Assembly: GCF_988243305.1 (NCBI RefSeq)
Contig: NZ_OZ547136.1
Reading direction: 5' to 3' (one strand)
Length of the DNA: 64,000 bases
Shown: positions 2,801-37,461 of the stretch, piece after piece
Position numbering within the stretch: the stretch's first letter is position 1
Layout: each line of letters starts with the position of its first letter
Made by a program: the position numbers and the translations under genes
Notes under the pieces: model-generated
What the model was told of the DNA's origin: nothing
The model's database searches: none
Seen by the model: only the letters and a program-made list of their open reading frames with translations

Positions 2801-4129
2801 TTATGGCTCCTGATGAACAACTTCTGGCGGTGGAACGTCAACCAACCTTCTACTTAACAACGCATTGAGTAAAATCGCGCCAAAGGTTGCTGTACCGATC
2901 CCTCCCAACGTAAAACCGCCCAGCGTGAGAGCAAAATCACCCGCGCCCAGCACTAAGGTTACTGCGACCATAATCAAATTACCGTTCTGGCTTAAATCGA
3001 CACGGTTTTGTACCCAGATCCGTGCGCCTGCGACGGCAATCAGCCCAAACACAACAATTGAAGCACCACCAATCACCGGTGCAGGAATGGTATGGATCAG
3101 CGCGCCAAATTTCGGCGAAAAGCCCAACAGCATGGCGATGACGGCAGCAGCAACAAATACCAGCGTCGAGTAGACTTTGGTCACGGCCATCACACCGATA
3201 TTTTCAGCATAGGTGGTCACGCCGCTACCGCCGACAGAGCCGGAAAGCATCGTTGCCAGACCATCGCCTACGAATGCCCGCCCCATATACGGGTCCATAT
3301 AGCGTCCGGTCATCCCGGCGACCGCCTTGAGATGGCCTAAGTTTTCCGCCACCAGAATCACCGCCACGGGCGCAATCAGCATCATTGCCTGACCATTAAA
3401 AGCCGGAGTGGAAAAATGCGGCAGACCGAACCAGGCAGCATGGCTGACGAGAGTAAAATCGACGGCTTTTCCCAGCCCTAAAACGTTGGTCATCACGCCA
3501 TACAGCAGACAGGCGACAATTAATCCTACGAGAATCAATAATCGCTGGATCATGCCACGTGTAAACACCGCCACCAGCCCAATACACAGCACCGTCATTA
3601 CCGCCATCCAGCTATCAAAGGCCGAAGCCGATACACTTTTCACTGCGATAGGCGCTAAGTTCAGGCCAATCGCCATCACCACCGCACCCGTCACCACCGG
3701 CGGCATCAGCCGTTCAATCCAGCGCGTACCGATTTTCATCACCACCAGGCCAATGACGGTATAAACCAGCCCACAGGTGATAATCCCGCCCAGCGCAATG
3801 CTGATATTCGGGTTAATGCCCTGACCGTTAAAGCCCGTCGCGGCAATCACCACGCCGACAAAAGCCGCGCTGGAACCGAGATAACTGGGGACGCACCCGC
3901 CGGTAATAAAGAAAAACAGTAACGTGCCGATCCCCGACATTAAAATGGAAAGGTTGGGATCCAGCCCCATCAGAATCGGCATTAACACCGTCGCGCCAAA
4001 CATCGCCACCGCGTGTTGAACGCCCATTATTGCCGTCTGAGCAAACGGCAATCGTTCATCCGGCGCGACCACGCCGCTCTCTGTAGAGGTCGATTTTAAC
4101 TGCCAGTGAGGAAAACCGAACATTGCCAT
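2801..4129 (-). CDS. rutG: Pyrimidine permease RutG (NCS2 family)
   Basis: Polytopic membrane ORF 2801..4156 first in the rut cluster; start trimmed to MAMFGF. Confidence 0.85.
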   Translation of the reverse strand: MAMFGFPHWQLKSTSTESGVVAPDERLPFAQTAIMGVQHAVAMFGATVLMPILMGLDPNLSILMSGIGTLLFFFITGGCVPSYLGSSAAFVGVVIAATGFNGQGINPNISIALGGIITCGLVYTVIGLVVMKIGTRWIERLMPPVVTGAVVMAIGLNLAPIAVKSVSASAFDSWMAVMTVLCIGLVAVFTRGMIQRLLILVGLIVACLLYGVMTNVLGLGKAVDFTLVSHAAWFGLPHFSTPAFNGQAMMLIAPVAVILVAENLGHLKAVAGMTGRYMDPYMGRAFVGDGLATMLSGSVGGSGVTTYAENIGVMAVTKVYSTLVFVAAAVIAMLLGFSPKFGALIHTIPAPVIGGASIVVFGLIAVAGARIWVQNRVDLSQNGNLIMVAVTLVLGAGDFALTLGGFTLGGIGTATFGAILLNALLSRRLVDVPPPEVVHQEP

Positions 4130-4149
4130 CAGCTGTCTCCTTAAGGAGG

Positions 4150-4644
4150 TTAACAAGCAGGGCGCATCAACGCGTGATAACTGCGATCAAACCACACCAG
4201 CCCGTAGGGGGTGGCGTGACGATGAATCGCTTCGATGGCGCAAAACAGAATGTCGTGGGTGCCGACGCTCACCACCTGGCTGATACGGCAGTCAAACGAA
4301 ACCAGAGCCTCCTCCAGTTGCGGGCATCCGGTCACACCAGTCTGCCAGCGGGCGGCGGCAAAGCGGTGTTCCATGGGCGTTTTGCCGCCAAAAAGGTTTG
4401 AAAGCGGCTCCTGCCCGGCGCTAAGTGTATTTACACACAGCGTTCGATTTTCATTGAATACCGGCCAGACGGACGCCCCACGATTCAGGCACACCAGTAA
4501 TGTGGGCGGCGTATCGGTCACGCTGCAGACGGCGCTGGCGGTGAACCCGGCGCGCCCGGCTGGACCGTCCGTGGTGATAATATTGACCGCCGCGCCCATG
4601 CAGGACATCGCATCGCGAAAAGTTTGTTGATCGACAATGTTCAT
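4150..4644 (-). CDS. rutF: FMN reductase RutF
   Basis: 164-aa flavin-reductase-like ORF in rut operon order. Confidence 0.85.
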
Positions 4645-4654
4645 AGTTTGCTCC

Positions 4655-5245
4655 TTACATCAGCCCGCAGGCTTCTTCAAAGGACAGACGTGGCAGGCGC
4701 GCATAAAGCTTGCTGCTATCGCCATAGCCGATATTAATCAGCAGATTGCTCTTCAGCGTGCTGCCCGTAAAAAAGGCGTCGTCCACGTGTTGACGATCAA
4801 AGCCGGACATCGGGCCGGTATCCAGCCCCAGCGCCCGGCAGGCGACGATCAGATAGGCCGCCTGCATGGAACTGTTGCGAAACGCTGTTTCTTCGGCAAG
4901 TTGTGGGCTGGAGGTAAACCAACTGCGGGCATCGCCGTGAGGAAACAGCTGTGGTAACCGTTCATAAAATTCACTGTCCCAGGCGACGATCGCGGTGACG
5001 GGCGCGGTCAGGGTTTTTTGCAGATTGCCGCTGGAAAGCGCCGGGCGCAGACGTTCTTTTCCTTCTGCAGTGCGGATAAACACGATCCGTGCCGGAGAAC
5101 AGTTAGCTGATGTCGGCCCCCATTTCATCAGGGCATAAATCTCCCGTAACGTCTCATCGCTGACGGGTGTCTCCCGCCAGCCGTTGTGAGTGCGGGCATC
5201 GGTGAATAGGGTGCTAAGCGCACCAGGGCTAACGGCTTCGTTCAT
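4655..5245 (-). CDS. rutE: Nitroreductase-family protein RutE
   Basis: 196-aa ORF in rut operon order. Confidence 0.85.
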
Positions 5246-13593: not shown

Positions 13594-15102
<1,509 letters not shown>

Positions 15103-15182
15103 GGGACTTAGCCTGCGGCGGTTTTGTTTGGCTTCAGCAGCGGGTTGCGCTCCCTTAATGTGCCTCGCCATATAAATTGAAT

Positions 15183-15220
15183 GGTGCAGGGGGCGGCCAA
15201 TCGCCGCCACCCCCTGCACC
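15183..15220. repeat. Long GC-rich palindrome in the putP–efeU intergenic region
   Basis: ggtgcagggggcgg...ccgccaccccctgcacc inverted repeat. Confidence 0.4.
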
Positions 15221-15755
15221 CCGGGCTCTGGCGAACAAAATCGCCGCTGCGCGGTACCTTCAGCTTATCCCCTTCGGCTACCGGGTCGGGCGCGAGGTAA
15301 TGTCCTATAAGACGCGCCCTCAGCCCACATCCATGTGGGCTGCCCTGGCCTTCGGGGAACGCTTCAGCGACTTTGACGCCACCAACACCCGAGCTGTTAT
15401 TATGTTCCGGGCAAAAAGTTAGATTTGATAATCGCGGATGGACGAAATTGCTTGATACACCCGCTTATCAGTTTTACATGGAAGCTCTGATGCATTGAGT
15501 CTGGACAGTTTTGTCGGCTGGATAAGGCGTTTACGCGGCATCTGGCAAGAACACATGGCTCGTTGTAAACAATCCCATCTTTGTACCTGGAATAATCGTT
15601 TATATCCCTTGCCATTACCTCTCTTTGTTTACATTCCAACATCATTTTATAAACATTCCGCTTGTATTTTTCTTTGCCGTAATGATAATCGCTATCACTG
15701 CGATTTACTTTTCTTTGCATAGATTGACTCAGAAAAACGTTTAAGGGTGGGTGGC

Positions 15756-16586
15756 ATGTTTGTTCCATTTCTCATTATGTTGCGCGAAGGACTTGAAGCC
15801 GCGCTGATTGTCAGTTTGATTGCCAGCTATCTTAAGCGTACCCAGCGAGGCCGATGGATTGGTGTGATGTGGATTGGCGTGTTGCTTGCCGCTGCGTTGT
15901 GCCTGGGCTTGGGTATCTTCATTAACGAAACCACCGGCGAATTTCCGCAAAAAGAACAGGAACTGTTTGAAGGTATCGTGGCGGTGATCGCCGTGGTGAT
16001 CCTTACCTGGATGGTTTTCTGGATGCGCAAAGTGTCGCGCAACGTCAAAGTACAACTGGAGCAGGCAGTCGATAGCGCATTGCAGCGTGGGAATCATCAT
16101 GGCTGGGCGCTGGTGATGATGGTCTTTTTTGCCGTTGCAAGGGAGGGGCTGGAGTCGGTCTTTTTCCTGCTGGCGGCGTTTCAACAAGATGTCGGGATCT
16201 GGCCGCCGCTGGGTGCAATGCTCGGTCTTGCTACAGCCGTGGTGCTCGGCTTCCTGCTCTACTGGGGCGGTATTCGCCTCAATCTTGGTGCATTTTTTAA
16301 ATGGACCAGCCTGTTTATTCTCTTCGTCGCCGCAGGGCTGGCGGCTGGTGCCATTCGCGCATTTCATGAAGCCGGATTGTGGAACCACTTTCAGGAAATC
16401 GCCTTCGATATGAGCGCGGTGCTCTCAACTCACTCGCTGTTTGGCACGCTGATGGAAGGGATTTTTGGCTATCAGGAAGCGCCGAGCGTCAGCGAAGTCG
16501 CCGTCTGGTTTATTTATCTCATCCCGGCGCTGGTGGCATTTGCTCTGCCACCACGCGCAGGGGCGACAGCGTCTCGCTCCGCGTAA
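15756..16586 (+). CDS. efeU: Ferrous iron permease EfeU (FTR1 family), apparently intact
   Basis: Uninterrupted ORF 15747..16586 with REGLE motifs; start placed at MFVPFLIM. Confidence 0.8.
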   Translation: MFVPFLIMLREGLEAALIVSLIASYLKRTQRGRWIGVMWIGVLLAAALCLGLGIFINETTGEFPQKEQELFEGIVAVIAVVILTWMVFWMRKVSRNVKVQLEQAVDSALQRGNHHGWALVMMVFFAVAREGLESVFFLLAAFQQDVGIWPPLGAMLGLATAVVLGFLLYWGGIRLNLGAFFKWTSLFILFVAAGLAAGAIRAFHEAGLWNHFQEIAFDMSAVLSTHSLFGTLMEGIFGYQEAPSVSEVAVWFIYLIPALVAFALPPRAGATASRSA

Positions 16587-16643
16587 CAAATACGACGCAA
16601 ACTCTTGCTTAGTTACAACATACTTTAAAGGGATAGTCTCGTC

Positions 16644-17771
16644 ATGACCATTAACTTCCGCCGTAACGCATTGCAGTTTAGCGTGGCTGCGCTGTTCTCT
16701 TCTGCTTTTATGGCTAACGCCGCTGATATTCCGCAGGTCAAAGTCACTGTGACAGATAAACAGTGCGAACCGATGACCATTACGGTTAACGCCGGGAAAA
16801 CACAGTTCATTATTCAGAACCACAGCCAGAAGGCGCTGGAGTGGGAGATCCTCAAAGGCGTGATGGTGGTGGAAGAGCGGGAAAATATCGCCCCTGGTTT
16901 TAGCCAGAAAATGACGGCGAATTTACAGCCTGGCGAATACGATATGACCTGCGGTCTGCTGACTAACCCGAAAGGGAAGTTGATCGTCAAAGGTGAGGCA
17001 ACGGCGGATGCGGCGCAAAGTGATGCGCTGTTAAGTCTTGGTGGTGCAATTACTGCATATAAAGCGTATGTCATGGCGGAAACCACACAGCTGGTGACCG
17101 ACACCAAAGCCTTTACCGACGCGATTAAAGCAGGCGATATCGAAAAAGCGAAAGCACTGTATGCACCGACGCGCCAGCACTATGAGCGCATTGAACCGAT
17201 TGCTGAATTGTTCTCCGATCTGGATGGCAGCATTGACGCCCGTGAAGATGATTACGAGCAAAAAGCCGCCGATCCGAAATTCACCGGTTTCCACCGTCTG
17301 GAAAAAGCATTGTTTGGCGACAACACCACCAAAGGGATGGATAAGTACGCTGACCAGCTTTATACCGATGTGGTCGATTTGCAAAAACGCATCAGTGAAC
17401 TGGCTTTCCCACCTTCAAAAGTGGTCGGCGGTGCAGCCGGACTGATTGAGGAAGTGGCAGCCAGCAAAATCAGCGGTGAAGAAGATCGCTACAGCCACAC
17501 CGATCTGTGGGATTTCCAGGCTAACGTTGAAGGCTCGCAGAAAATTGTCGATCTACTGCGTCCACAACTGCAAAAAGCCAACCCGGAACTGTTGGCAAAA
17601 GTCGATGCCAACTTTAAAAAGGTCGATACCATTCTGGCGAAATACCGTACTAAAGACGGTTTTGAAACCTACGACAAATTGACCGATGCCGACCGGAATG
17701 CACTGAAAGGACCGATTACTGCGCTGGCGGAAGATCTGGCGCAACTTCGCGGTGTGCTGGGACTGGATTAA
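16644..17771 (+). CDS. efeO: Periplasmic iron uptake protein EfeO
   Basis: 375-aa ORF with signal peptide, in efeUOB order. Confidence 0.85.
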
Positions 17772-17776
17772 ACGTT

Positions 17777-19048
17777 ATGCAGTATAAAGATGAAAACGGC
17801 GTGAATGAACCGTCACGCCGACGTTTACTGAAAGGGATTGGTGCACTGGCGCTGGCGGGAAGTTGTCCGGTCGCTCATGCACAAAAAACGCAAAGTGCGC
17901 CGGGTACGCTTTCACCGTATGCACGCAATGAGAAACAGCCGTTTTATGGTGAGCATCAGGCAGGGATCCTGACACCACAACAGGCTGCAATGATGCTGGT
18001 GGCGTTTGATGTGCTTGCCAGCGATAAAGCCGATCTTGAACGGTTGTTTCGCTTGTTGACTCAGCGTTTTGCTTTTCTGACTCAGGGCGGAGCGGCACCA
18101 GAAACGCCAAATCCGCGCCTGCCACCACTCGATTCCGGCATTCTTGGCGGCTACATTGCGCCCGATAATCTCACCATCACGTTATCGGTGGGTCACTCAT
18201 TGTTTGATGAGCGCTTTGGCCTTGCGCCACAGATGCCAAAAAAGTTGCAGAAGATGACGCGTTTCCCTAATGACTCGCTGGATGCGGCGTTATGTCATGG
18301 TGATGTGTTGCTACAAATTTGCGCCAACACCCAGGATACGGTGATCCATGCGCTGCGCGATATCATCAAACACACGCCGGATTTGCTCAGTGTGCGCTGG
18401 AAGCGGGAAGGGTTTATTTCCGATCACGCGGCGCGTAGTAAAGGCAAAGAGACGCCGATAAATTTGCTGGGTTTCAAAGACGGCACTGCCAATCCCGATA
18501 GCCAGAATGATAAGTTGATGCAACAAGTGGTGTGGGTGACGGCAGATCAGCAGGAGCCTGCGTGGACAATCGGCGGCAGCTACCAGGCGGTGCGGTTGAT
18601 TCAGTTTCGGGTGGAGTTTTGGGACAGAACGCCACTGAAAGAACAGCAGACGATTTTTGGTCGCGACAAACAAACCGGTGCGCCGCTGGGAATGCAGCAT
18701 GAGCATGATGTTCCCGATTACGCCAGCGATCCGGAGGGGAAGGTGATTGCGCTGGACAGCCATATCCGGCTGGCGAATCCCCGCACGCCAGAGAGTGAGT
18801 CCAGCCTGATGCTGCGTCGTGGCTACAGTTATTCGTTGGGCGTCACCAACTCCGGACAACTGGATATGGGGCTACTGTTTGTCTGTTACCAACACGATCT
18901 GGAAAAAGGCTTCCTGACAGTACAAAAAAGGCTCAATGGCGAAGCGCTGGAGGAATACGTTAAACCTATCGGCGGCGGTTATTTTTTTGCGCTGCCGGGG
19001 GTGAAGGACACGAACGATTATCTGGGAAGGGCGCTATTACAGGTTTGA
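17777..19048 (+). CDS. efeB: Dyp-type peroxidase EfeB (Tat-secreted)
   Basis: 423-aa ORF with twin-arginine signal (SRRRLLKG). Confidence 0.85.
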
Positions 19049-19058
19049 ACGACGCAAA

Positions 19059-19153
19059 TATGCCCGATGCGCAGGTTTATCGGGCATGAGTTTGGTGCAC
19101 AAATTATTAATCACTTGTAGGTCGGGTAAGGCGTTCACGCCGCATCCGGCAAG
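19059..19153. repeat. REP-like palindromic units downstream of efeB
   Basis: Hairpin atgcccgat...atcgggcat, then a REP-like gtaggtcgggtaaggcgttcacgccgcatccggcaag. Confidence 0.5.
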
Positions 19154-19370
19154 CTTTTACCAGTACTGCGAATCCTGCTGAAAGCACACAGCTTTTTTCA
19201 TCTCTGTCATCACTCTGTCATCTTTCCAGTAGAAACTAATGTCACCGAAATGGGTGTTTATCGTTAAATATAAGTGAATATATTGTTGCAATGAATGCGA
19301 GATCTGTTGTACTTATTAAGTAGCAGCGGAAGTTCCCGGCAGTGATAGTCAGTCACTATGGAGATCGCGG

Positions 19371-20435
19371 ATGGTAACGTCCTGTACTGGACATGTTTTA
19401 GATAATCAGCGCGCCACCACTCGCGGAGATTTCTCCTCCGGTAGTCATCTCGTCACTTTGTATTTTCAACCTCATCCTTTCTTTTCATGTGTTACCGACG
19501 CCGTAAACGGTGCGCGTAGCCGTTTTTCGGCATTTTATCCAAAAGCAAACTATGGCTTACAAGGAAGCCAACCCTCTGATGTTCGTGCGCATAATCGCGC
19601 TGCCAACGGCGCGTGTGATGAATACAAACAACTCAAGGTGCTCTCCATGGGAAGACAAAAAGCAGTGATCAAAGCTCGTCGCGAGGCAAAACGTGTGCTG
19701 AGACGGGATTCGCGCAGCCATAAGCAGCGTGAAGAAGAATCGGTCACCTCGCTTGTGCAGATGAGCGGCGTAGAAGCCATTGGTATGGCCCGCGACAGTC
19801 GCGATACCTCGCCCATCCTCGCGCGAAATGAAGCGCAATTGCACTATCTGAAGGCTATTGAGAGTAAGCAGCTGATATTCGCCACGGGCGAAGCCGGGTG
19901 CGGAAAAACCTGGATCAGCGCAGCAAAAGCGGCAGAGGCCCTGATACATAAGGATGTCGACAGGATTATCGTCACCCGTCCAGTTCTGCAAGCCGATGAA
20001 GATCTTGGCTTCTTACCTGGAGATATCGCAGAAAAGTTTGCTCCCTATTTTCGTCCGGTCTACGACGTGCTGGTCCGGCGCTTAGGGGCTTCCTTTATGC
20101 AGTACTGCCTGCGACCGGAAATAGGGAAGGTGGAAATTGCGCCGTTCGCCTATATGCGTGGACGTACCTTTGAAAATGCAGTCGTCATTCTTGACGAGGC
20201 GCAGAATGTGACTGCCGCGCAAATGAAAATGTTTTTAACCCGCCTCGGGGAGAACGTGACGGTTATCGTCAACGGTGATATCACGCAATGCGATTTGCCT
20301 CGCGGCGTGCGCTCCGGATTAAGTGACGCGCTGGAACGTTTCGAAGAAGATGAAATGGTCGGGATCGTCCGATTCGGTAAAGAGGATTGCGTACGTTCGG
20401 CACTTTGCCAACGTACGCTACATGCATACAGTTAA
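19371..20435 (+). CDS. phoH: PhoH, phosphate-starvation-inducible ATPase
   Basis: 354-aa ORF with Walker A GEAGCGKT. Confidence 0.85.
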   Translation: MVTSCTGHVLDNQRATTRGDFSSGSHLVTLYFQPHPFFSCVTDAVNGARSRFSAFYPKANYGLQGSQPSDVRAHNRAANGACDEYKQLKVLSMGRQKAVIKARREAKRVLRRDSRSHKQREEESVTSLVQMSGVEAIGMARDSRDTSPILARNEAQLHYLKAIESKQLIFATGEAGCGKTWISAAKAAEALIHKDVDRIIVTRPVLQADEDLGFLPGDIAEKFAPYFRPVYDVLVRRLGASFMQYCLRPEIGKVEIAPFAYMRGRTFENAVVILDEAQNVTAAQMKMFLTRLGENVTVIVNGDITQCDLPRGVRSGLSDALERFEEDEMVGIVRFGKEDCVRSALCQRTLHAYS

Positions 20436-20482: not shown

Positions 20483-20997
20483 CATTAACAGCAAAGACTT
20501 TCACTTCAGGTTAACGTTCTGGGGGGCGACTTTGAGCGTGTTGATAAGCTGAAATGAATTCTGGTTTAGATACTTTTACCAGGCATTTTTCGTCATAGCA
20601 CGCGACCAATGTAATGCCGCCAGCGCGGAGAGTTTTTTGCCTATCTTTTTCCAGCCATTCAACCTGTACAGGAGGTCTGGTGCCAATTTTGCGTATGAGG
20701 TTTAATCAACAATGGGCCAAAATTTGACTGACTGATTAACACCGAATATATTCTCCTGATTTTATTTTTTAGGGATAATATTAAAAATATAAGGTTAATC
20801 TTAATTAAATTTTTGGCTAATATTGTGTGTTGTTATTTTTTGTGGACGGCAAGCCGCAATGGCAAAATAGGTATGGTTGTAATAATCAAAACATGATACT
20901 AACTATATATAGATCGTTGAATTGTTGGCATGTAACTCGCTACAGCGAGTAGCGTTAGTAATGAAATATAATCAACATGGATAGGTGAAGATTAATT

Positions 20998-21684
20998 ATG
21001 AGCTTTATGGTTTTTGTAACTTGTTTGACAATTGCATTTGTCGCCGGTTTTGCTGTTGCCAGAAAATTGACACTCCGAAAAGTTGCCTCATCGGTAATCA
21101 TCACTAGATCGCAACCAGTCCCTTCCTCTGCAACTTCCCCTGCTGCTAAGGCGTCGACAAGGAGCTATACACCGCAGAAAACCTATCGTGACTCTCGTTG
21201 GCAAGAACGAGATGAGTTGTTCCAGGGAATGGTTGCCGAAGGTATTTTATTGGAAGGAAAAGAGTGGTTAATTACGCGTTGTGAAAAAATTTATTTTGAT
21301 AATCTGGAGAAATGGTTTGGACATTCTTGTCATATCCATTGCCAGGTCTCTCTGGGGCGCTTGATCAACTTTCCAGAACAACCCGAGTTTAGCGAAGAAG
21401 AAAGAAAGCGTTTCTTTGCAATTTATAATGGAATGGCAATGGATTATGTTCTGGTTTCAAAGAAGAACAATAAAATAGTCTGTGTTATTGAGCTGGATGA
21501 GCCGAGTCATGAAAGGGCAGATCGCATTATTCGTGACCGTTGGTTGAATACGATTATGACTATTGCACGGGTGCCTTTTGTACGAGCTTCTGTCACTAAA
21601 TTGGATGAAATCCCTCCGGTCTGGGATACCCGTGACAAAATTCGCCCATTAGCCGCGGCGACAAAGGGTGAACCGTTGCATTAA
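20998..21684 (+). CDS. Membrane-anchored DUF2726-like protein
   Basis: 228-aa ORF with N-terminal TM helix and a C-terminal region that I read as DUF2726-like (NFPEQPEF ... VIELDEPSHE); AT-rich promoter region upstream. Confidence 0.55.
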   Translation: MSFMVFVTCLTIAFVAGFAVARKLTLRKVASSVIITRSQPVPSSATSPAAKASTRSYTPQKTYRDSRWQERDELFQGMVAEGILLEGKEWLITRCEKIYFDNLEKWFGHSCHIHCQVSLGRLINFPEQPEFSEEERKRFFAIYNGMAMDYVLVSKKNNKIVCVIELDEPSHERADRIIRDRWLNTIMTIARVPFVRASVTKLDEIPPVWDTRDKIRPLAAATKGEPLH

Positions 21685-21691
21685 CTAAGTA

Positions 21692-21969
21692 CCCCGGTCA
21701 GGGCTTCTCATCTCCCCCGGTGTGTGCAATATACGAAAAAAAAGCCCGTACCTTCGTACGAGCTCTTCTTTAAAGATGGCGGTGAGGGGGGATTGACTCG
21801 CTTCGCTCGCCCTGCGGGCAGCCCGCTCACTGCGTTCACGGTCTGTCCAACTGGCTGTCGCCAGTTGTCGAACCCCGGTCGGGGCTTCTCATCCCCCTGT
21901 GTGTGCAATATACGAAAAAAAAGCCCGTACCTTCGTACGAGCTCTTCTTTAAAGATGGCGGTGAGGGGG
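21692..21969. repeat. Two ~99-bp near-identical direct repeats separated by ~81 bp
   Basis: Copies at ~21692–21790 and ~21872–21969; on the minus strand each carries a stem-loop followed by T8. Confidence 0.6.
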
Positions 21970-22129
21970 ACCGCCTGAAATAAATCTGACTTAATCCAGG
22001 GGTGTTATATAATTTCATTATAAACAATGTATTACACTTTTTGTTGTCCGATATTATCTAATGTATTCTTAGTGAAGCGAGAGACTAATGGCATACTGGA
22101 TGGCATACCAGAGTGACGGGAATTAGCGT

Positions 22130-23332
22130 ATGGCAGTATTGACGGATACGAAAGCAAGACATATCAAACCTGATGACAAACCATTGCCCCATGGGGGAAT
22201 TACCGGACTGACCCTTCATCCTTCTTCAGTAAAGGGGCGGGGGAAATGGGTTTTTCGTTATGTAAGTCCGGTGACACAAAAAAGACGTAATGCTGGATTG
22301 GGAACTTACCCAGAGGTCAGTATTGCTGAAGCTGCACGTACTGCCCGGATAATGCGAGAGCAACTTGCTGCAGGTGATGATCCTCTGGAGATTAAAAAGG
22401 CTGAATCTGAGAAAGTCGCTATCCCAACATTTGCCGATGCAGCCAGGCGTGTACATGCAGAACTGTCTCCTGGATGGGAAAATCCAAAGCATGTAAGGCA
22501 GTGGTTATCGACGCTTGAGAATTACGCGTTTCCTCAACTGGGAGCAAAAACGCTGGATTCGATTACGGCTGCGGACGTGGCAGAAACACTGCGTCCAGTC
22601 TGGTTAACCTTATCAGAAACGGCAAGCCGGGTTAAACAGCGCATTCATGTTGTTATGCAGTGGGGATGGGCGCACGGTTTTTGTGTAGCAAATCCTGTTG
22701 ATGTGGTTGACCATTTGCTTCCTCAGCAGACAAGAGGACGTGATGAACACCAACCCGCAATGCCCTGGAGGCAGTTACCGCTTTTTGTGGCGACCAGTGT
22801 GTATACCGATGAACCTTATAATGTTACCCGCGCACTGTTATTAATGGTGATACTTACAGCAACTCGCTCGGGCGAAGCCAGGGGAATGCGCTGGGCTGAA
22901 ATTGATTTTCATAAGCGGGTATGGACTATACCTGCAGAAAGAATGAAAGCTAGGCTACAGCATCGTGTTCCTTTATCCCGGCAGGCTATTTACATTCTGG
23001 AAAATATACGTGGCCTGCATGATGAACTGGTGTTCCCTTCACCCAGAAAGCAGCAGATCCTTTCCGATATGGTGTTGACAAGTTTTCTGCGTAAAAAGAA
23101 AGCCGTCAGTGACATTCCGGGGCGAGTTGCCACGGCACATGGTTTTCGCTCAACATTCAGGGACTGGTGTAGCGAACAGGGGTATTCGCGGGATCTGGCG
23201 GAAAGGGCGCTCGCTCATACGCTGAAAAATAAGGTTGAGGCGGCATATCATCGTACTGATCTACTGGAGCAGCGTGTACCGATGATGCAGGCATGGGCGG
23301 ATTATGTGATGTCTCAAATTGTGAATAAATAA
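22130..23332 (+). CDS. P4-type tyrosine integrase
   Basis: 400-aa ORF with arm-binding-type N-terminus and C-terminal catalytic region (HGFRSTF ... LAH ... Y) as in P4/CP4-57-type integrases. Confidence 0.85.
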   Translation: MAVLTDTKARHIKPDDKPLPHGGITGLTLHPSSVKGRGKWVFRYVSPVTQKRRNAGLGTYPEVSIAEAARTARIMREQLAAGDDPLEIKKAESEKVAIPTFADAARRVHAELSPGWENPKHVRQWLSTLENYAFPQLGAKTLDSITAADVAETLRPVWLTLSETASRVKQRIHVVMQWGWAHGFCVANPVDVVDHLLPQQTRGRDEHQPAMPWRQLPLFVATSVYTDEPYNVTRALLLMVILTATRSGEARGMRWAEIDFHKRVWTIPAERMKARLQHRVPLSRQAIYILENIRGLHDELVFPSPRKQQILSDMVLTSFLRKKKAVSDIPGRVATAHGFRSTFRDWCSEQGYSRDLAERALAHTLKNKVEAAYHRTDLLEQRVPMMQAWADYVMSQIVNK

Positions 23333-23518
23333 TAGTGAAAATGTATATTGTACGATCATGATTTGATATGTGATCGTAGCAGTAGTAATTAAGAAACCGC
23401 TTTTATGTCAAATGTATTGAGCTGATAATTATCAGATCGTCAGGAAAGCGTATTTTGATTAACAGGGGATTACTTAACAATCCCCTTTTTATAAAAAATA
23501 ATTTGCCTGTTTAACTCT

Positions 23519-25336
23519 TCACTCCTGCTGAGACTGAATTATTCCTAGTGCGTCATAAATCAGTCTTCTGCGTAGTTTATTGTTTTTATCTGCACCATAT
23601 AACATAAATATATTTTCAACTTTTTCTTCAGGTGTTCTGAGATAATGGATAAGAAAGGTTATCATTCCAACACAATGGAATAAAGTGAATCCATCAAACA
23701 GGCTTATCAGGTTTCCTTTTTTTTCCCGTGTTGTAAGTATTTTTTCGCGGGTAAGAATATTTGCCAGTTCATGGGGGGCTGATATGTTTCTGCTGTCTAT
23801 AATGTCATTTATTTTACCAAGGGCTATATCAACTTCCTGTAATAGGTTATTTATCATAGCTGAGTGAATGTTATTGGTTTCATGTTCCTGACAGTTTATG
23901 AACTTATAAATCATTGAGTTATACAGAAATATTACTCTTCCTAATAAATATGTGTTTGTGTCATTTTGAAGACAGGACTCTGGGTATTCGTGATCCAGTG
24001 AAATAAGGTTAATGGACTCGCCCTGATAAGTCATAAAATAATTGATGTCATTTAATAATGCTCGGATATTTACATGATTTTTACTGAATTTTATTTTAAA
24101 TGCTATCTTTAGTATAGCAAACGCGGCAATGATAAATCCAAAAGGTAATTTCTCATAGTTCAGTTTATTGATGGTGCGATGAACACTTTCAGTCTTTCCT
24201 GAAGTAAGTTGTCTCAAACAGTTAACAAATTCTGTATAGCCATTTAAGACATAATGGCATGAAGAATCTTTTAAAGAGTTTTCTATGTTTTGTAATGTGA
24301 CGCCGTTGTTCAATGTATAAATGTAACCGCCAAAGACAATGTTTTCAATCTCAACGACACAATTTATTGTTTTTTGTTCAGGATAAAGATAAATATCAGA
24401 AATACTATAGTCTCGTATTGCGTCAATGGCATCCCACGATAATGCACTGTCAATTTTCAGTGTATAAAATGGTGAGTTCTCATTAGGAAAGTAATATATG
24501 TATTTGTTCAGTATATTCATTACATCTATTGGGTTGGTTAAATATAATAACTGGCATTCATATTCTGAAACTTCTCTTTCGCTTATCAGCATTTTATATA
24601 AAGTTGCCAGGGTGCTTGTTAATGAAGTTCGTCTTTCGAAAGCCAGTAATATAGTGAGATAATAACATGCAACCTGAACTTTATCTAAGTCAGAAATTAT
24701 TTTTTCCTTGTCTTCATTACTTAAATAAAGCAGATGTTTACAGGTTTCTTTGCATGTGTTGATAGTTGCGATAAGTTTTGTTTTTCCTGGTGTACTGTTT
24801 TTGCGAATATTACGAATGAATTCATATACGCCATCAAAGATATCTTTGAAATGCGCATTCGCTGGCGTGTATCCGGATAAACATAACTTAACGTAATTTC
24901 GCAGATATGTCCTTGCAGCATGATATATATCATCCTCATTATCCGGTATCTGAGTGAGAAAAGAATGAATATGATAGTAAAATGCCATCTCATTATCCGG
25001 GCGATATGTGTTCCTGATGTCGAGTGCGAGAATCATTGGTACAATGTCATTAAAATATTTTTGTTTTATTATTTGATGTGTTTTGTCTGTAAAAACAGAA
25101 TAGTGCATTAGCTTAACATAGAGATCTTCATATCTCCTAAATATAACTTTTCGTTGTTCTTTACTCAATACTTGTTCTTTATCAATAATGTTTATTAATT
25201 CATCAAACATGTCGCCCAGTGAATGTTGATGTGAGGAAAAATTTTTAATATTTCGGATGTCACGGCTATTCTGGTTTTTAGCCAGAACACCAAAACATGA
25301 AAAGACATCATACATTATAGTGATAAAATTATACAT
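23519..25336 (-). CDS. Hypothetical 605-aa orphan protein, strongly AT-rich
   Basis: Long uninterrupted ORF with no motif I recognise, directly downstream of the integrase. Confidence 0.6.
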   Translation of the reverse strand: MYNFITIMYDVFSCFGVLAKNQNSRDIRNIKNFSSHQHSLGDMFDELINIIDKEQVLSKEQRKVIFRRYEDLYVKLMHYSVFTDKTHQIIKQKYFNDIVPMILALDIRNTYRPDNEMAFYYHIHSFLTQIPDNEDDIYHAARTYLRNYVKLCLSGYTPANAHFKDIFDGVYEFIRNIRKNSTPGKTKLIATINTCKETCKHLLYLSNEDKEKIISDLDKVQVACYYLTILLAFERRTSLTSTLATLYKMLISEREVSEYECQLLYLTNPIDVMNILNKYIYYFPNENSPFYTLKIDSALSWDAIDAIRDYSISDIYLYPEQKTINCVVEIENIVFGGYIYTLNNGVTLQNIENSLKDSSCHYVLNGYTEFVNCLRQLTSGKTESVHRTINKLNYEKLPFGFIIAAFAILKIAFKIKFSKNHVNIRALLNDINYFMTYQGESINLISLDHEYPESCLQNDTNTYLLGRVIFLYNSMIYKFINCQEHETNNIHSAMINNLLQEVDIALGKINDIIDSRNISAPHELANILTREKILTTREKKGNLISLFDGFTLFHCVGMITFLIHYLRTPEEKVENIFMLYGADKNNKLRRRLIYDALGIIQSQQE

Positions 25337-25476
25337 AACATTCTCCTTTTATTGCACTATATAAAATTTTAACATTATATCATTTTGCTTTTCTGTTAAC
25401 TGGTTTTCATTTTTGAATCAATATTTTCTGAACAGGGTAATAGTACACGTATTAACAGATTATGTCAGAAGGCCCC

Positions 25477-26239
25477 GGTGATGCCTTCTGACGATAGATT
25501 AATGTTGTATTCTATTGGTATCTGGAGACCATATGGCAACAGTTACAGTATATTCTCCCCGCTGTAATTCCTATAAAGTGTACCGTTATGATCACAGCAC
25601 CTCAGATCATGAGCGTTTCCAGTGCTAATCCTGCAAACGTGTATTTCAACTGAATTACATCTACGAAACCCGAAAACCAGGCATTAAAGAGCAAATTGTT
25701 GAAATGGTTCATAACGGAGCCGGGGGTCGCGATAGCTCCAGAACGCTGAAGGTGGATATCAACACCGTCATTCTCACTTTAAAAAACGCTCACCACGTAA
25801 AGTAACCATATCTCCAGCCGCCAGTGTCGATGTGGCACTTATCTGTGAACTTGATGAACAATGGAGTTTTGTCGAAAACAAAGCTCGTCAGCAGTGGCAC
25901 TGGTACGCGTATAAGACCAAAGCTGACGGTGTGCTGGCTTACACTTTTGGTCCTCGCACTGATGAAACATGCCGTGAGTTGCCGGAATTCCTGAAGCCAT
26001 TCTCCGCAGGCATGATAACCAGAGACAACCGGAGCAGTTATACCAGAGAAATGCCACAGGATAAGCATCTTGTCGGCAAGATATTTACCCGGCGCATTGA
26101 GCGCAACAATCTGACACTTCGTACTCACATCAAACGACCTGCCCGGAAAACGATTTGCTTTTTACGCTCCCTGGAAATTCACGAAAAGCCATTGGTTCAT
26201 TTATCGAAAACACATGTACTACTGACAGGAGTCATTACC
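25477..26239 (+). mobile_element. IS1-family element, divergent and degenerate
   Basis: IS1-like terminal inverted repeats (ggtgatgcc ... ggagtcattacc); InsA-like and InsB-like reading frames (ICELDEQW ... RIERNNL) broken by stop codons. Confidence 0.6.
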
Positions 26240-26435
26240 AGGGCCTCTTTTGCTGTTTTTTTGCCATGAATGATAATGAGAATCGACAGCGATAAGGGAA
26301 AAGTAAAATAACACTAATGCTGTCGTTTTCTATCATATTGATTTTTAATTATTTATTGTCTTTTTTCTCAACCCATTTTTTTACGCAGACAAATTTACCC
26401 GGGGAATACAAACTGTAACGACAGTTCACCACACT

Positions 26436-26744
26436 ATGGGGGATAAAATGCCAGATCAATCCGGACACTGCAGGACTCCTTCACGCATCTTACGGATGCC
26501 TGAACTGAGCCAATTGTTAGGTATATCTCGTTCGACAATTTACGAAAAAATGAATCCGTTATCGAAATACTACGATGCAACCTTCCCCAGGCCGGTACGT
26601 CTTGGTAGTGGTTCTGTGGGCTGGCGTTCATCAGCTATTGACGAATGGCTTACTTTACATACTGTACCTGCCAGATCAGCAGTCAAAGGTGTTAATGACG
26701 AAGTGAGACATACGCTTTCTTCAGATATGACCATGAGCAGATAA
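26436..26744 (+). CDS. AlpA-family phage/island transcriptional regulator
   Basis: MPELSQLLGISRSTIYEKMNP HTH typical of AlpA-like proteins; true start may be internal. Confidence 0.7.
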   Translation: MGDKMPDQSGHCRTPSRILRMPELSQLLGISRSTIYEKMNPLSKYYDATFPRPVRLGSGSVGWRSSAIDEWLTLHTVPARSAVKGVNDEVRHTLSSDMTMSR

Positions 26745-26852
26745 GTTTTTGTCATCACGTGATCACCTCAGGAGGAAAAAGAAGCATAAGAACAATTTAG
26801 CCAGAAGTTTAATTGATAAACAAAATTTCCAGCATTCATTGTTGAAAGAGCA

Positions 26853-26906
26853 GCTATTGTCGCTATTGTCGCTATTGTCGCTATTGTCGCTATTGTCGCT
26901 ATTGTA
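26853..26906. repeat. Tandem 9-bp repeat array (gctattgtc, six units, last degenerate)
   Basis: Directly visible; a related degenerate copy lies at ~27351–27394. Confidence 0.85.
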
Positions 26907-26937
26907 GCGGTAATTGCTGCTATAACCGAAACGTATT

Positions 26938-27204
26938 ATGAAAAAGGAAGCATTTATGCCTTACATCAAACCGGATATGCCGTATTCAGTATATGCATGA
27001 CCATCAATGATAGGGAAGGCAATAATTAAAGCTCAATACAATAAACAAGTACCTCTGACTCTGGTTGCAATGTCAGTATTAACAGCGATGTCAATTGCCT
27101 GTCAGAATCAGGTTGACGTATGCAGTCCCGGAAATTTACGTGGGGCCGTTAATATTTACACTATGGTTCTGGAGAAAGGGAAAAGACCGGGGGAAAGGTA
27201 TTAG
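26938..27204 (+). pseudogene. Degenerate partial duplicate of the YfjI-like gene N-terminus
   Basis: MKKEAFMPYIKP ... then ORF 27007..27204 (AIIKAQYNKQVPLTLVAMSVLTAMSIACQNQVDVCSPGNL) parallels residues 1–70 of the downstream gene, with a frame break. Confidence 0.55.
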
Positions 27205-27404
27205 TGAAATAATTTCCGGAGGTATTAAGAATGAGAAATATGAATGATATTTCGTGGTGAATAATACAGTCTTCACTGAATTAACCTTATCGGTTTATTA
27301 AACATCAGATCTACAAATGCTCTGTATTTCTCAGAGCATCAGGTCTGAATAGCAGCTATTTTCGCTATTGTAGCGGGATTTGCTGCTATTTTACTAACCC
27401 ATTA

Positions 27405-28856
27405 ATGAAAAGAGAGGCTTTTATGTGCTTACTTGCACCAGAAAATCCTTATCCGATATATGCACTACCACCGCTGGTGAGAAATGCAATAATTGAAACT
27501 CAAAAAAATACACAGGCACCTTTGGCTATGGTGGCAACATCCGCATTAACAGCGATCTCAATTGCCTGTCAGAATCAGATTGACGTGTGCAGACCTGGAA
27601 ATTTACATGGGCCTGTTAATCTTTACTCTCTGATTCTGGCTGATTCCGGTGAAAGGAAAACGACCGTGGATAAAGTGTTTATGAAAGCATTTTATCTCAG
27701 GGATGAAGCCCTGGCGGATGAATACGCGAAACTGGTTGAGAATTACAGTACAGAAAAGGAAATATGGGAGCAAAAACAAAAAGCGCTGGAATCAAAATTT
27801 CATAAAGAGATTCGTGCCGGTAAAGATTACAAGGCAACAGAATCAGAGCTTGAAACGCATCTGAATAAACCTCCTGTTCCGCCGCAGATACGTCGAACAA
27901 TTTTTAATGAGACAACGATAGAGGGAATGTTAAAATATTACTCCGATAGCAATCGCTCTTTTGCTCTTGTATCCAGTGAAGGGGGGGTAATTTTTGACAG
28001 CCGGGCCATGAGTAAACTGGGAATTATTAACACTTTGTGGGATGGAGGTTCTCTTTTCATCGACAGGAAATCATCTCCCGGAATTAATTTGAAGGAGCCA
28101 AGACTGACGATATCGGTGATGATTCAGCCTGATGTTTACCACAAAGGTTTTTGTACGCGAAAAAAAGAAATTGTGAAAACGTCAGGACATCATGCAAGGT
28201 TTTTGATGTGTCAACCAACATCAACGCAGGGGACAAGGATAATAACCGGAGATAATTATTCATCACAGTATCAGGATTTGTTTGAAGAGAGGATCAATGA
28301 GCTTATTGATGAAAGTCTGGCGATGAGTGGTGAACGACGTTGCCTTCACTTTTCTCCTCAGGCTGCCAGAATCTGGACGGATTATTACAATGATGTGGAA
28401 TCGAAGCTGGGGGGATTGGGGCCTTTAAGACATTGCCGGGAATATGCTGCTAAAAATGCAGAGTATATGGCAAGACTGGCAGGACTTATTTACCATTCGA
28501 GCGGTGAAGAGGGGGAGATTTCCCCTTACACTGCAGAAATGGCGAGAGAATTAGCAATATGGTACGGTAATGAGTATGTGCGGTTGTCTAATCCGTTAAC
28601 TTTTGACAACTCTGCCCTGACCGTACCTGTGCGACTCATTCCAGAGGAGCTTGAACTTTTCAACTGGATAAAAAGCTATTGTATTGAGAAGGGGATCCTC
28701 TGTATGAAAAAAAATGACATTTTACAGCGTGGTCCGAACCGTTTCCGGAAAAAGGATAAAATCAACTGGTTACTGGATTTACTGTATGAACAAAACAGAG
28801 TTGTACCGGTTATTGAGGGAAAAACGTTGTGTGTCGCACCTAACTTTGACCTCTGA
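27405..28856 (+). CDS. YfjI-like island protein (DUF3987-like)
   Basis: 483-aa ORF matching the YfjI family of CP4-57-type elements by recalled similarity and position after alpA. Confidence 0.7.
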   Translation: MKREAFMCLLAPENPYPIYALPPLVRNAIIETQKNTQAPLAMVATSALTAISIACQNQIDVCRPGNLHGPVNLYSLILADSGERKTTVDKVFMKAFYLRDEALADEYAKLVENYSTEKEIWEQKQKALESKFHKEIRAGKDYKATESELETHLNKPPVPPQIRRTIFNETTIEGMLKYYSDSNRSFALVSSEGGVIFDSRAMSKLGIINTLWDGGSLFIDRKSSPGINLKEPRLTISVMIQPDVYHKGFCTRKKEIVKTSGHHARFLMCQPTSTQGTRIITGDNYSSQYQDLFEERINELIDESLAMSGERRCLHFSPQAARIWTDYYNDVESKLGGLGPLRHCREYAAKNAEYMARLAGLIYHSSGEEGEISPYTAEMARELAIWYGNEYVRLSNPLTFDNSALTVPVRLIPEELELFNWIKSYCIEKGILCMKKNDILQRGPNRFRKKDKINWLLDLLYEQNRVVPVIEGKTLCVAPNFDL

Positions 28857-29676
28857 ACGACTTAATCGTTGAGTACATATAGTCTCCTCTGCTACTTGCG
28901 GAGGAGACTAATGTCTTTACCATGTCAGCGTTGTATTAGAAAACTCTGGTACAGGTCAGTCAGTAAATATAACTGGTGTAACCACTATTTACTATTGGAT
29001 AGAGTGTTGCTCAGGATATTGTCGGCTTTAGTCTGAGGTGAGGTGGGGCCTTCATTGTTTTCGTGTTCAATAAATAATTTAGGTTAATTAGTATTATTAG
29101 TGGAAGTTATGTGATCTGTTATGTTGTCTTGTACGCACTTAACACTGGTTACGTACCGGAACACTATTAGAGTATGTTATGGCTCTGTTACAGTTTATAG
29201 GTATGAAAAAATATAATCTTTCCTGTATGAAATAATATTCTTATGGTGTGTGGGGTATGGTCTGTATACCATCATTTTTATGGTGAAGTTAAATATCTGT
29301 AGAGGCCTTAAGCTGGGTCGCTGTTTTTACTTAATGGTACAGAAGTATTAATAGCGGTGTTGCCTGTGGCTACCCGATACTGGCTTTTGTGAATGTCAGA
29401 TTACTTCCTGTAAGTGATTGAATGGTACTTCCTTAAACTCAATTCTATGAGGTGTGTTTTTACCATTGTAATTCGTACTGGTCCTCAGTTTAAGTGAGTC
29501 TTACTGTACTCTGAAATATTACCTCTTTGGAGTAATGAGGTAATACGAAACAGTTTTATCAGGTTGTCTGTGCTGCTGGTTACCTCGTTTATTAATGCCG
29601 CGGTACGGCGTTTCTGTACTCTCAGTATTTATGTAATTCCACCTTCCTGTAACTTTTATAAAGTAAGGACTATAAA

Positions 29677-30240
29677 ATGTATAATGCTAATCCCAATTAC
29701 GAAATGGACTTCATGATTCTGAAAGACGTGAATGAACACATGGAAGGTCTGTTTCAACGTTTTTCTAAACTGTTACCTTTCAGAATTGATTTTGCCTACA
29801 GGAAAGACACGCCCAGTTTTGGTCATTCCTGTAGGCACAGTATGTGTATTGAAATGCACCGCTTACTTAGTGAAACCCAAACGATGCTGGCGGGATATTA
29901 CTGGGTAATGGAATATACGTCAAACAAGGGACTTCATATTCATTTTATCGGCTACTTGGATGGGCAACGTCACAAGAAATTTTATCGGATATCCAGGCAA
30001 CTGGGAGATATCTGGAGTCGGATCACGGAAGGGGAGGGTTATTTTCACCTGTGCAGTACTAAAGACAAATACTCGGTGCGTATCGATCACGTGATTCACT
30101 ATAGTGATAAGTCTGCGGTAGACGGTTTACGTTACGCCCTTAGCTACCTGGCTAAACAGGATCAGAAAGAACACGGTATTATTCTGGGCCGTAGCAGGCT
30201 TCCCGAAAAAAGCAACCGGGGCCGACCACGACATAACTGA
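29677..30240 (+). CDS. YfjJ/YagK-like protein (inovirus Gp2-type putative replication initiator)
   Basis: 187-aa ORF; family assignment from recalled similarity and position after the YfjI-like gene. Confidence 0.6.
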   Translation: MYNANPNYEMDFMILKDVNEHMEGLFQRFSKLLPFRIDFAYRKDTPSFGHSCRHSMCIEMHRLLSETQTMLAGYYWVMEYTSNKGLHIHFIGYLDGQRHKKFYRISRQLGDIWSRITEGEGYFHLCSTKDKYSVRIDHVIHYSDKSAVDGLRYALSYLAKQDQKEHGIILGRSRLPEKSNRGRPRHN

Positions 30241-30902
30241 ATTACAGTTGTATTAGGTATTAAAATTAAGTTTCTGTAAGTTGTTGGGAGGTGCTTGAGT
30301 TAATAGGCAGAAGAGGGCGGGGCGCTTTGTCATCAGTGTAGGGGACCCGAATTTCTGCCGTGGTACCTCAGTGGATCGGATACAGGTAACGAATATGGTT
30401 CATAAATCTGACAGTGATGAATTAGCTGCACTGAGGGCAAACATAACTTGAAGCTTATGGGATTGAATGGCGACGTAAACCGCAGAGTCCTGTGCAGTGC
30501 GTTTCCGTATTATCCACGGATGAGAAAGTTGCGTTATTTTGTCGACTGTTTCGCGGGCGTGATGATGTATGGGCCCTTCGATGGGAAAGCAAAACCAGCG
30601 GCAAATCAGGGTACTTGCGGGCCTGTGCTAACGAATGGCAGCCGGGAATAGCGGTAAACTCCGGATAAAATGTGGGGACTGCGCTCACCGTCAGTTGATC
30701 CCTGTATCTGATCTCATCATCTACCACTACACGGTTTAACGGGGCCGCGTCATCTCGGCGTTGCCCGATAAATTCTTTTCTACGTATAATAACCAGAATG
30801 AACGTGTAAAACACCATAGTATTCAGAACTATAAACATCGAAACCTGCCATATTGACCAGAATAAATGACCTTATTTTTACTGAAATTTAAGGAGAACAC
30901 CG

Positions 30903-33900
30903 TTGGAAGTAGAAATGTGGGATGGTGGCTTACAAGAACAGGAAGTATTGGCTATCGAGAAAATAAAAGCTGCTTTTTCAGTCAACGTATCTAAGCCTGA
31001 CAAGCCTTTCCGTAGCGGTTCAATTAGTGAGCAGCTAAAAAGCTATGGTTTTATCGGCAATGAAATGTTCCCTTGGAAAGGTTATGCAGGTTTTCGATTT
31101 GTTGAGGCAAAAAAAGAGGGGGAATTCGATTTAGTTATTGTAACACACTGCAACGTGATCATTGTTGAACTGAAAGACTGGAACCATCAGCCTGTAACCG
31201 CACGCGGAGATACTTGGTTTAAAGGCGATAAGAACATGGGGCGCTCGCCAGTAAGCGTGACTCGTAGCAAAAAATTCATGCTGGACAAAAAACTCAAGCG
31301 TCTGGTAGACCGTTTTACGAACAAAGGCTATATCCCGATTGTTCATTTTTTTGTTGTGATGACCGGCAATGCAGATTTCAGCGCGCTGCCGGAGGAACAA
31401 CGGCGCCATACGATCTCGTTAAAAGATTTCCTGAAGTTTGCCGATCGCGGGAGCTTCAATAACTATTTCAAACCGCACCCAGCTACCAAGGTTCTTAACA
31501 AGGATTTCCATCTTTTCGATGATTTGTTCCTAGGGCCTCAGACGGCACCAAAAGCCTTGAGAGTTAATGGCTATGAAGCTAATGATATGATTTTCGAACA
31601 TCCTAAAAAGGTGTATCGAGAATATCTGGCAAAATCTGAGATATCAACGAACAGCGAAGCGCTACTCAGAGTATGGAATTTTAGAAATATAACGGGAACG
31701 AAAGCGAATACCCCGGAAGGACGAGCTCAGATTGTTTCACGTGAGCGCGAAGTGTTACAGCACATCAATCACCAGAATCGTGACCTGTATAACCACTGTC
31801 TCAGGTCTTTGACGAGTTTTCAGAAAGACGAGGTGACGGCCGAGTATAGCGAAGTCTACGAAGTTCCGCCGGGTCATGTCCGGTTTAATGAGTTTATCGG
31901 AAAATATGGTAAGAACTTTTCTGATATGGACCGCTTGAATGTGGTGAAACTGCTCATTGCAAAGTTTAGTGATCTCCATGAGATGAAAATTGCGCACAGG
32001 GATGTCGCCGATCACAGTCTGTGGATTTCACCTTCAAAAGAAGTTGCTCTTTCGAACTTTATTTCGGCTTACCACCAGCCAGCCGGAACGGTTGGCGATT
32101 ACCGTAAGCTTTTATCCGTAGGTGCAGTCCACGTAAAAGACATGCTTGATAAGGGCGAGCTTACGCCTTTTCAGCAAGATGTTCATACTCTGGGCCTTGT
32201 CGCCTGGCACTTATTTAGCGGTATGCGCATGTCGCCAAAGAGTCTGGAGAAAGTACAGGACAACATGCTAAACAGCCAGCACTGGTATTCATCTGTATTA
32301 CGGGATGCCGTTGCCGCAAAATTCACTTCTGCAACAGAATTCTTTGATGCCCTGAAACAAGCCGAACCTGCTGGCAAGGATATTCCAACATTTGATGATA
32401 CTGAGCTTGACCCTTACCGACATGCTATCAATCACGCTCGTCAATACCCGGAAGACGATGGCTTTCAGTTTCAGGTCGAAACAGTCGACAAAGAAGTCTA
32501 TATCTCGAAAGGAAGGCTCGTGAAGGCTTGGCTGAATGTTGGGGGACAGGGATACGATCCGTCAATTAATTTCCAGGTTCTGAAGTTTTTAAAGCAGGTT
32601 GAGCGGCTTTCTTCAGTTAAAACAACGTATCTACCTCAAATTCGTGAATTCGGTATCGCATCAAAATCATCAAGCCTATATATGGTCACGGATCAGGTAC
32701 AGGGAGAAACCTGGGATAAAATAGCGGTCCCCGATGATGAAAAAATCGACCTCATTGGTAAGTTTGTCGCCGCCGTTGAGCACTTACATGGTCTGGGTGT
32801 TTCTCACGGGGACATCCACCCTGGCAATGTGATATTTGAGACACAGAGCCGTTTGCTTTTTCTCATCGATATCCCCGATTTTTCACCGTCCGGTGACGAA
32901 CCTAAAAATCACAGTTACAGCCCTGAATACATTGATAATTGTACTTCTTTTGAACGTGACAACTATGCAGTGATGAAGATGTCCTGCGAGTTGCTAGGCA
33001 TGTCATGGGGGCTGGAATCAGACATTTATCCGACAATCGCGAATGCTATCCGAGCAGAGCTGGAAGATCCGGTTTTTGGGTTTAAGGATTTAGGCCGCTT
33101 TAAAAAAGCGATAGATAGTAATGACCTGGTGCCAGAACAAGACCTGATAGAGATTACTGCAGGAAATGCCGATGAAATAATCTCTATTCTGCCTGATAAC
33201 GGGCATCTGTATGTCAAAGTTAAGTCAAATCCTAAAGCGCCAGCTGAAGTAAATGTGACTTTCTCTGGGATTGGTGGCAGTTTTACTGCGGTGTTCAACA
33301 AAGATCAGAAGACGCTGGTTCATGGCTTCAGGCCACGGGCTCGCGTCACAATTCGTAAGCAAGATATTGATGAAAGCCAGTTCGAAATTGATACTGGCAT
33401 CAAGATTATTCCCGGCAGTCCGCAGGATCTGTCGGCGTTGACAGTATTGCTTAATGAAGAAGAATCTTTTGCGCGGGCAATCGAGTTGATTGCCGCAACT
33501 GAAGATGTTCAGGTACAAGAGCCACTTACGCTTCAGCTAAAAGATACCTTTGCAAGGCTTGATAAGCAGACGCTTGAACCTTCTTTAAGAGAAGTGCTGG
33601 AAATCCCAACAGTGAAACTGTGGCGCGCCATTCTGGATACTGAAACAGAATCTTATCCAAACATTGAAATCAGCGGTGAAGTGGTCCCGGTTGCAGATGC
33701 TCATGGAGAGCTTCTTCTCCCTTACTCTGCTGATGTTGATCCACTCGGTGCTTTCAGAAGTAGTGATGAAGTCGAAGCCTTACAGGTCGATCAGGAAGGT
33801 GTTGAGCGATTTATTGGTGAAGTGTCACTTAAGAAGTCAGAGCTCAAAGAGATTCGTCTTGTCAAAGTTAGTTCAGCAGCCTTCAAGCTGAAGGATTCTG

Positions 33901-37306: not shown

Positions 37307-37461
37307 GCTGTTGGAACAGGAGGTATGGGGCATGTTTGCGTATTTTTATGGAAAGAAATAACCCAATGACGGCGTTACTCTCCAACTGGGTTGACGCGTG
37401 CTGCCTGTTAATGGCTCCGCTGAATGATGCCCTATACCGTTATGTGATGAACACCCGCCTG

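Follow-up and report, generated by a model that had tools for sequence, protein, structure and literature searches.

An uninterrupted efeU reading frame in a very probable wild-type efeUOB iron uptake operon of a non-K-12 Escherichia coli

EfeUOB is described as a system for the uptake of Fe2+ at low pH that is repressed by Fur and regulated by CpxAR (Cao 2007, as relayed in PMC3577903 and PMC9174327), and Fe2+ uptake in acid medium requires a full EfeU (PMC3577903). In Escherichia coli O157:H7 the efeU gene is complete (PMC3577903), and Cao et al. (2007; Mol Microbiol 65:857) are reported to have demonstrated experimentally that the encoded system works. Strain Nissle 1917 was reportedly the source of the functional efeU of Grosse et al. 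(2006; Mol Microbiol 62:120), and both of these reports are cited in PMC9174327 and PMC4746246. In K-12, the lesion of efeU is a deletion in codon 36 (PMC3577903; also PMC2808357).

The window, that is the whole stretch of 64,000 nucleotides analysed here (contig NZ_OZ547136.1), displays the gene order putA-putP-efeU-efeO-efeB-phoH of the E. coli chromosome, with efeU, efeO and efeB all on the plus strand and separated by gaps of 57 nt and 5 nt. We regard the region, with high confidence, as efeUOB in its ordinary wild-type form, from a non-K-12 strain of Escherichia coli. An earlier note, made from the letters of the sequence, had claimed an intact efeU frame at 15747-16586, and its coordinates match exactly those of an uninterrupted ORF in the ORF listing (15747..16586, plus strand; 279 aa counted from a GTG, the stop codon being part of the end coordinate), the translation of which contains no internal stops.

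The efeU of K-12 MG1655 (b4490 in NC_000913.3) is 830 bp long and annotated as a pseudogene, and the same sequence is labelled 'frameshifted' by PGAP in K-12 derivatives. Global alignment with the 831 bp of efeU in the window revealed one 1-bp indel and 10 substitutions, leaving 820 of 831 positions identical, and the locus and its flanking genes are shared between the two. The indel lies at the GG dinucleotide of codons 35/36 (15860..15861, plus strand), where K-12 has a single G; this is the K-12 pseudogene frameshift, by which frame 0 of K-12 reads ...RGRWIV* and stops at codon 37, whereas the window is free of the deletion. Past the deletion, the +2 frame of K-12 encodes exactly the protein of the window, and all 10 of the 10 substitutions are therefore synonymous. 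The statement in the earlier note that efeU is frameshifted in K-12 is thus borne out both by the pseudogene and frameshifted annotations and by the 1-bp deletion in codon 36, and the pairwise alignment that it had proposed as a check assigns the deletion to K-12 and shows no frameshift or stop in the window. Since the window carries GG at 15860-15861, its efeU is not the cryptic allele of the K-12 type.

Translation almost certainly begins at the ATG of position 15756 and not at the GTG that opens the mechanical ORF, so that efeU spans 15756..16586 on the plus strand (276 aa plus stop), encoding with its intact frame an inner-membrane iron permease of the Ftr1/OFeT family. The RefSeq start is this ATG, giving the 276-aa EfeU of WP_000497942.1; it was taken from strain 2012C-4221 (CDS 4057..4887 of its locus, L002), the DNA of which is 100% identical to the window over 15700-16650. 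The alternative of a start at GTG 15747 was weighed and rejected, as RefSeq and the family profiles begin at the ATG and as the sole Shine-Dalgarno-like motif, AAGGG at 15743-15747, overlaps the GTG while lying 8 nt 5' of the ATG. The in-frame extension of 9 nt (GTG GGT GGC, 15747..15755, plus strand; sequence context AAGGGTGGGTGGCATG), which lengthens the mechanical ORF to 279 aa, is probably untranslated. The antisense and overlapping ORFs of the region, among them one of 215 aa at 15741..16388 and one of 122 aa at 15400..15768 (both on the minus strand), were treated as mechanical because they lie opposite or beside a strongly conserved gene and are unannotated in all the records inspected.

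EfeU matched the NCBIfam equivalog NF041756 with 331.2 bits (cutoff 255) and TIGR00145 with 351.7 bits (cutoff 303.8), both essentially over the full length, and Pfam FTR1 with 300.3 bits over residues 1-275. As the scores against the family models exceed their cutoffs, efeU can be taken as a real gene and not a chance ORF. Two REXXE motifs, the iron-handling motifs of Ftr1/OFeT permeases, are present as REGLE at residues 10-14 and 129-133. A crude Kyte-Doolittle scan delineated six clear hydrophobic segments (approximately 1-24, 32-60, 68-94, 146-173, 177-204 and 242-266) and left the segment around 116-140, which bears a REGLE motif, below threshold; the pattern is compatible with the seven transmembrane helices expected for EfeU and other Ftr1 (OFeT) permeases (PMC9174327). 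A PDB sequence search at E <= 0.01 found no solved structure of EfeU or of a relative.

The two partner genes are intact as well. The efeO gene (16644..17771, plus strand) encodes a periplasmic cupredoxin plus M75 (imelysin) protein of 375 aa, which aligned with positions 1-375 of the 375 in NCBIfam NF007697 at 773 bits, carries the Pfam domains Cupredoxin_1 and Peptidase_M75 with an HRLE motif at 217, and has an EfeO structure in the PDB (7WGU). The efeB gene (17777..19048, plus strand) encodes a Tat-exported DyP-type haem peroxidase/deferrochelatase of 423 aa, which scored 614 bits against TIGR01412, matched Pfam Dyp_perox_N and Dyp_perox_C, and retains the Tat motif RRRLL at 14, GFKDG at 232 and residues D235, H329 and R347; EfeB structures in the PDB are 2Y4D/E/F and 3O72. 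The complete tripartite arrangement is thus found in the window: efeU, followed by efeO (cupredoxin plus M75) and then by efeB (Tat DyP).

In the literature model of such an operon, EfeU would act as an Ftr1-like permease of the inner membrane that imports iron, EfeO as a Sec-exported periplasmic metal-binding protein of the cupredoxin-M75 type and EfeB as a Tat-exported periplasmic haem peroxidase of the DyP type. Fe2+ would be oxidised in the periplasm and passed along by EfeB and EfeO for import through EfeU; alternatively, EfeB would free iron from haem ahead of that import. In either version Fe-Fur would repress the operon, and CpxAR would govern its induction at acid pH. It is possible, though we lean against it, that the main role lies in the second version, with EfeB as a deferrochelatase that extracts haem iron in the periplasm for import through EfeU, and not in the uptake of free Fe2+. 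The O157:H7 EfeUOB system, complete EfeU included, is reported to make haem iron available to cells independently of the Dpp haem permease, and binding of both haem and protoporphyrin IX is reported for EfeB (both PMC3577903); homologues of EfeB are labelled 'deferrochelatase' in PDB entries; against this, the uptake of Fe2+ in acid medium is credited to the full-length EfeU (Cao 2007, in the form relayed by PMC3577903), and the two roles can coexist, the sequence being equally compatible with each.

Upstream of the gene, a Fur-box-like site, CGTAATGATAATCGCTATC, is situated at 15678..15696 on the plus strand, 60-78 nt upstream of the ATG, with 15/19 matches to GATAATGATAATCATTATC, and a CpxR-like box with 9/10 matches to GTAAA-N5-GTAAA is situated at 15704..15718 on the minus strand. 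Both boxes are unchanged in K-12 and O157:H7. Repression of the efeUOB operon by Fur is documented (PMC3577903), its regulation by CpxAR is reported by Cao et al. (2007), and CpxAR may act through the putative box at 15704..15718. The 128 nt directly before the efeU ATG differ from O157:H7 at 3 positions, all of them outside the Fur-like and CpxR-like boxes, whereas beyond about 128 nt upstream of the ATG the arrangement of the window is of the K-12 type and not of the O157:H7 type. Compared with the K-12 type, 400 nt of sequence upstream of efeU contain 11 differences (97% identity). Since the distal upstream region is K-12-type, distal regulation could differ from that of the tested O157:H7 operon. 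A simple scan of 15050..19400 for sigma-70 consensus sites, which is uninformative for the efeU promoter, returned 0 sites where 3.8 were expected by chance.

That EfeUOB would be functional in this strain is well supported, because EfeU is identical to the O157:H7 protein and because efeO, efeB and the proximal promoter are intact. Iron transport activity of EfeU is predicted from its 100% identity to the characterised O157:H7 EfeU, and we infer that this strain expresses the system and transports iron through it. The opposing possibility, that the frame is intact and the system nevertheless non-functional owing to a regulatory defect or to a deleterious missense change in EfeO or EfeB, appears very improbable. 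It could draw on the 9 EfeB and 3 EfeO residues that differ from O157:H7, on a distal upstream region unlike that of O157:H7 and on the lack of a consensus site in the simple sigma-70 scan. However, the catalytic and motif residues that were checked are all conserved, and both EfeO and EfeB cover their equivalog models from one end to the other with scores far in excess of the cutoffs. The stretch upstream of efeU shares 97% identity with the K-12 type, and neither the Fur-like nor the CpxR-like box is altered. In work attributed to Sturm in 2006 and Cao in 2007, moreover, a K-12-type upstream region is said to drive the expression of EfeO and EfeB.

The spacer between putP and efeU measures 653 bp in the window versus 542 bp in K-12, an additional GC-rich segment accounting for the net gain of about 110 bp. 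This segment belongs to a GC-rich dispersed intergenic repeat of about 160 nt, which occurs at a median of 3 and up to 8 places per E. coli genome; the copy in question occupies roughly 15185-15345 and the extra segment opens with a strong hairpin of a 15-bp stem at 15183-15220. O157:H7 and MLI121 instead carry a hypothetical gene of 1,344 bp on the minus strand in this spacer, and the presence of that gene in place of the repeat segment marks the putP-efeU spacer as a variable hotspot.

The state of efeU across the species was appraised in 5,426 complete E. coli genomes, of which 5,417 contain a 951-bp efeU segment at >=95% identity. Alleles were counted with queries of 38-39 nt centred on the indel, using megablast with an exact word of 28 nt, so that a match must span the site. 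The intact GG in the variant of the window was recovered from 3,927 genomes and the intact GG accompanied by a synonymous G>A change four bases 3' of it, a B2-type variant found for example in ATCC 25922, from another 1,024; the K-12 deletion at codon 36 was recovered from 367, and about 99 genomes fell outside all three queries. The latter presumably carry other nearby SNPs, like the intact strain E89. The site is therefore intact in at least 4,951 of the 5,426 complete genomes (>90%), and these allele counts identify the intact frame as the species-typical wild-type state and K-12 as the outlier. Strain E89 differs in efeU by 42 nucleotides and has an identical protein, which argues for strong purifying selection on efeU.

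Among the sampled carriers of the K-12 deletion, the overwhelming majority are MG1655, W3110, DH10B, MC4100, TOP10, XL1-Blue and similar strains. For a few of the 367 carriers the record gives chicken meat, dog, pig, mouse gut or human as the source of isolation. Whether such labels mean that the cryptic K-12 allele circulates naturally in K-12-like lineages, beyond being a laboratory feature, is doubtful in our estimation; alternatively, the carriers without a laboratory label are laboratory strains, transconjugant recipients or mislabelled records.

Two individual records deserve separate mention. In NZ_CP172017.1 (L004; strain EcN_Sk, named as a Nissle derivative), positions 557-1386 hold an efeU pseudogene that equals K-12 MG1655 base for base; the record also has the K-12 EfeO protein accession and a shorter putP-efeU spacer of about 220 bp, a combination that points to recombination with K-12 DNA, to engineering with it, or to a mislabelled record. 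In NZ_CP101005.1 (L007; the environmental isolate ET82), positions 357-1188 hold an efeU of 832 bp with an independent +1 frameshift, which represents either another natural inactivation event or an error in sequencing.

The suggestion that the window holds a K-12-like sequence whose extra G arose through faulty sequencing or assembly, conceivable in that single-base indels within short runs are a frequent sequencing error and that the isolated +1 frameshift of the RefSeq genome ET82 could be one, is effectively refuted by the 10 further synonymous differences between the window and K-12 within efeU, the additional differences in efeO, efeB and the intergenic region, the large island after phoH, the occurrence of the GG allele in at least 4,951 genomes and the 100% identity of the 951-bp segment in an independent complete genome.

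Several other features of the window were recorded alongside the operon. Downstream of phoH, at about 20500-38164, lies an integrase-bearing island, in a place where the pga operon is close by in K-12-type strains; the island is found at >=80% coverage in only 138 of the 5,426 complete genomes. It encodes a DUF2726 protein (20998-21684), a tyrosine integrase (22130-23332), a protein of 605 aa without a family match (23519-25336, minus strand), a DUF3987/YfjI-like protein (27405-28856) and an inovirus Gp2-like protein (29677-30240). Further along the island are MkoA (30903-35873, plus strand; 1,656 aa, 2212 bits over the full length of the PADLOC model), with NERD, kinase-like and SF1-helicase regions, and MkoB (35870-37306, plus strand; 478 aa, 503 bits against the PADLOC model), the gene of which overlaps that of MkoA; judged by these profile matches, the pair is a predicted Mokosh type I anti-phage defence system.

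Two identical IS629-like copies of the IS3 family occupy 38165-39474 and 58133-59442, each with an ALIL frameshifting pseudoknot according to Rfam (38500-38616 and 58468-58584). The first copy interrupts, towards its 3' end, a gene whose product is given in RefSeq as 'enterotoxin' or 'alpha-galactosidase'; the truncated gene is seen as an ORF of 525 aa at 39435-41012 (minus strand) with a foreign C-terminus, in place of a protein of 629 aa. A weak Rfam tRNA match at 54195-54262 (plus strand; 30.7 bits, gathering score 29), which was not called by ARAGORN, sits among remnants of IS66, IS21 and IS4 and could be part of a tRNA or what is left of an island attachment site. Rfam matches at gathering level were also obtained for the antisense RNA Ysr251 (20237-20430, minus strand) opposite the 3' end of phoH, the sRNA STnc100 (56724-56938, plus strand) and the Hfq-binding STnc490 (59696-59819, plus strand).

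An intact efeU is already known and ordinary, and the broken copy has long been recognised as a peculiarity of the K-12 laboratory lineage; the finding is unremarkable because the intact state is the species norm and K-12 the exception. Its value lies mainly in correct annotation, K-12 being an atypical reference at efeU. Unlike K-12, the strain should have an acid-induced EfeUOB route of iron uptake, and EfeUOB has been proposed to aid E. coli in acquiring iron in acidic, aerobic and iron-poor niches.

Overall, the nearest characterised counterparts of the locus are EfeUOB (YcdNOB) of O157:H7 and the EfeU of Nissle 1917; the gene order putP-efeU-efeO-efeB-phoH of the former is as in the window. 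The EfeU of O157:H7 is 100% identical and shares the accession WP_000497942.1; its EfeO is identical at 372 of 375 residues, with none of the 3 differences at motif residues, and its EfeB at 414 of 423, with the 9 differences all outside the motif and catalytic residues. Over their proximal 128 nt the two promoters are nearly identical, whereas the distal putP-efeU region of the window is K-12-like, without the 1,344-bp gene of O157:H7 and with the extra copy of the ~160-nt repeat. In a wider circle, the window EfeU resembles yeast Ftr1p and the bacterial OFeT relatives (FetM, cFtr1 and FtrC; EfeU/YwbL of B. subtilis; FepC of S. aureus) in its Pfam FTR1 domain and paired REXXE motifs. As with EfeU, the permease of these relatives works alongside a partner outside the cytoplasm, either an oxidase or an iron-binding protein (PMC9174327, PMC3577903). 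The partners of EfeU are, however, the DyP peroxidase EfeB and the cupredoxin-M75 protein EfeO, and not a multicopper oxidase (Fet3p) or P19/FetP.
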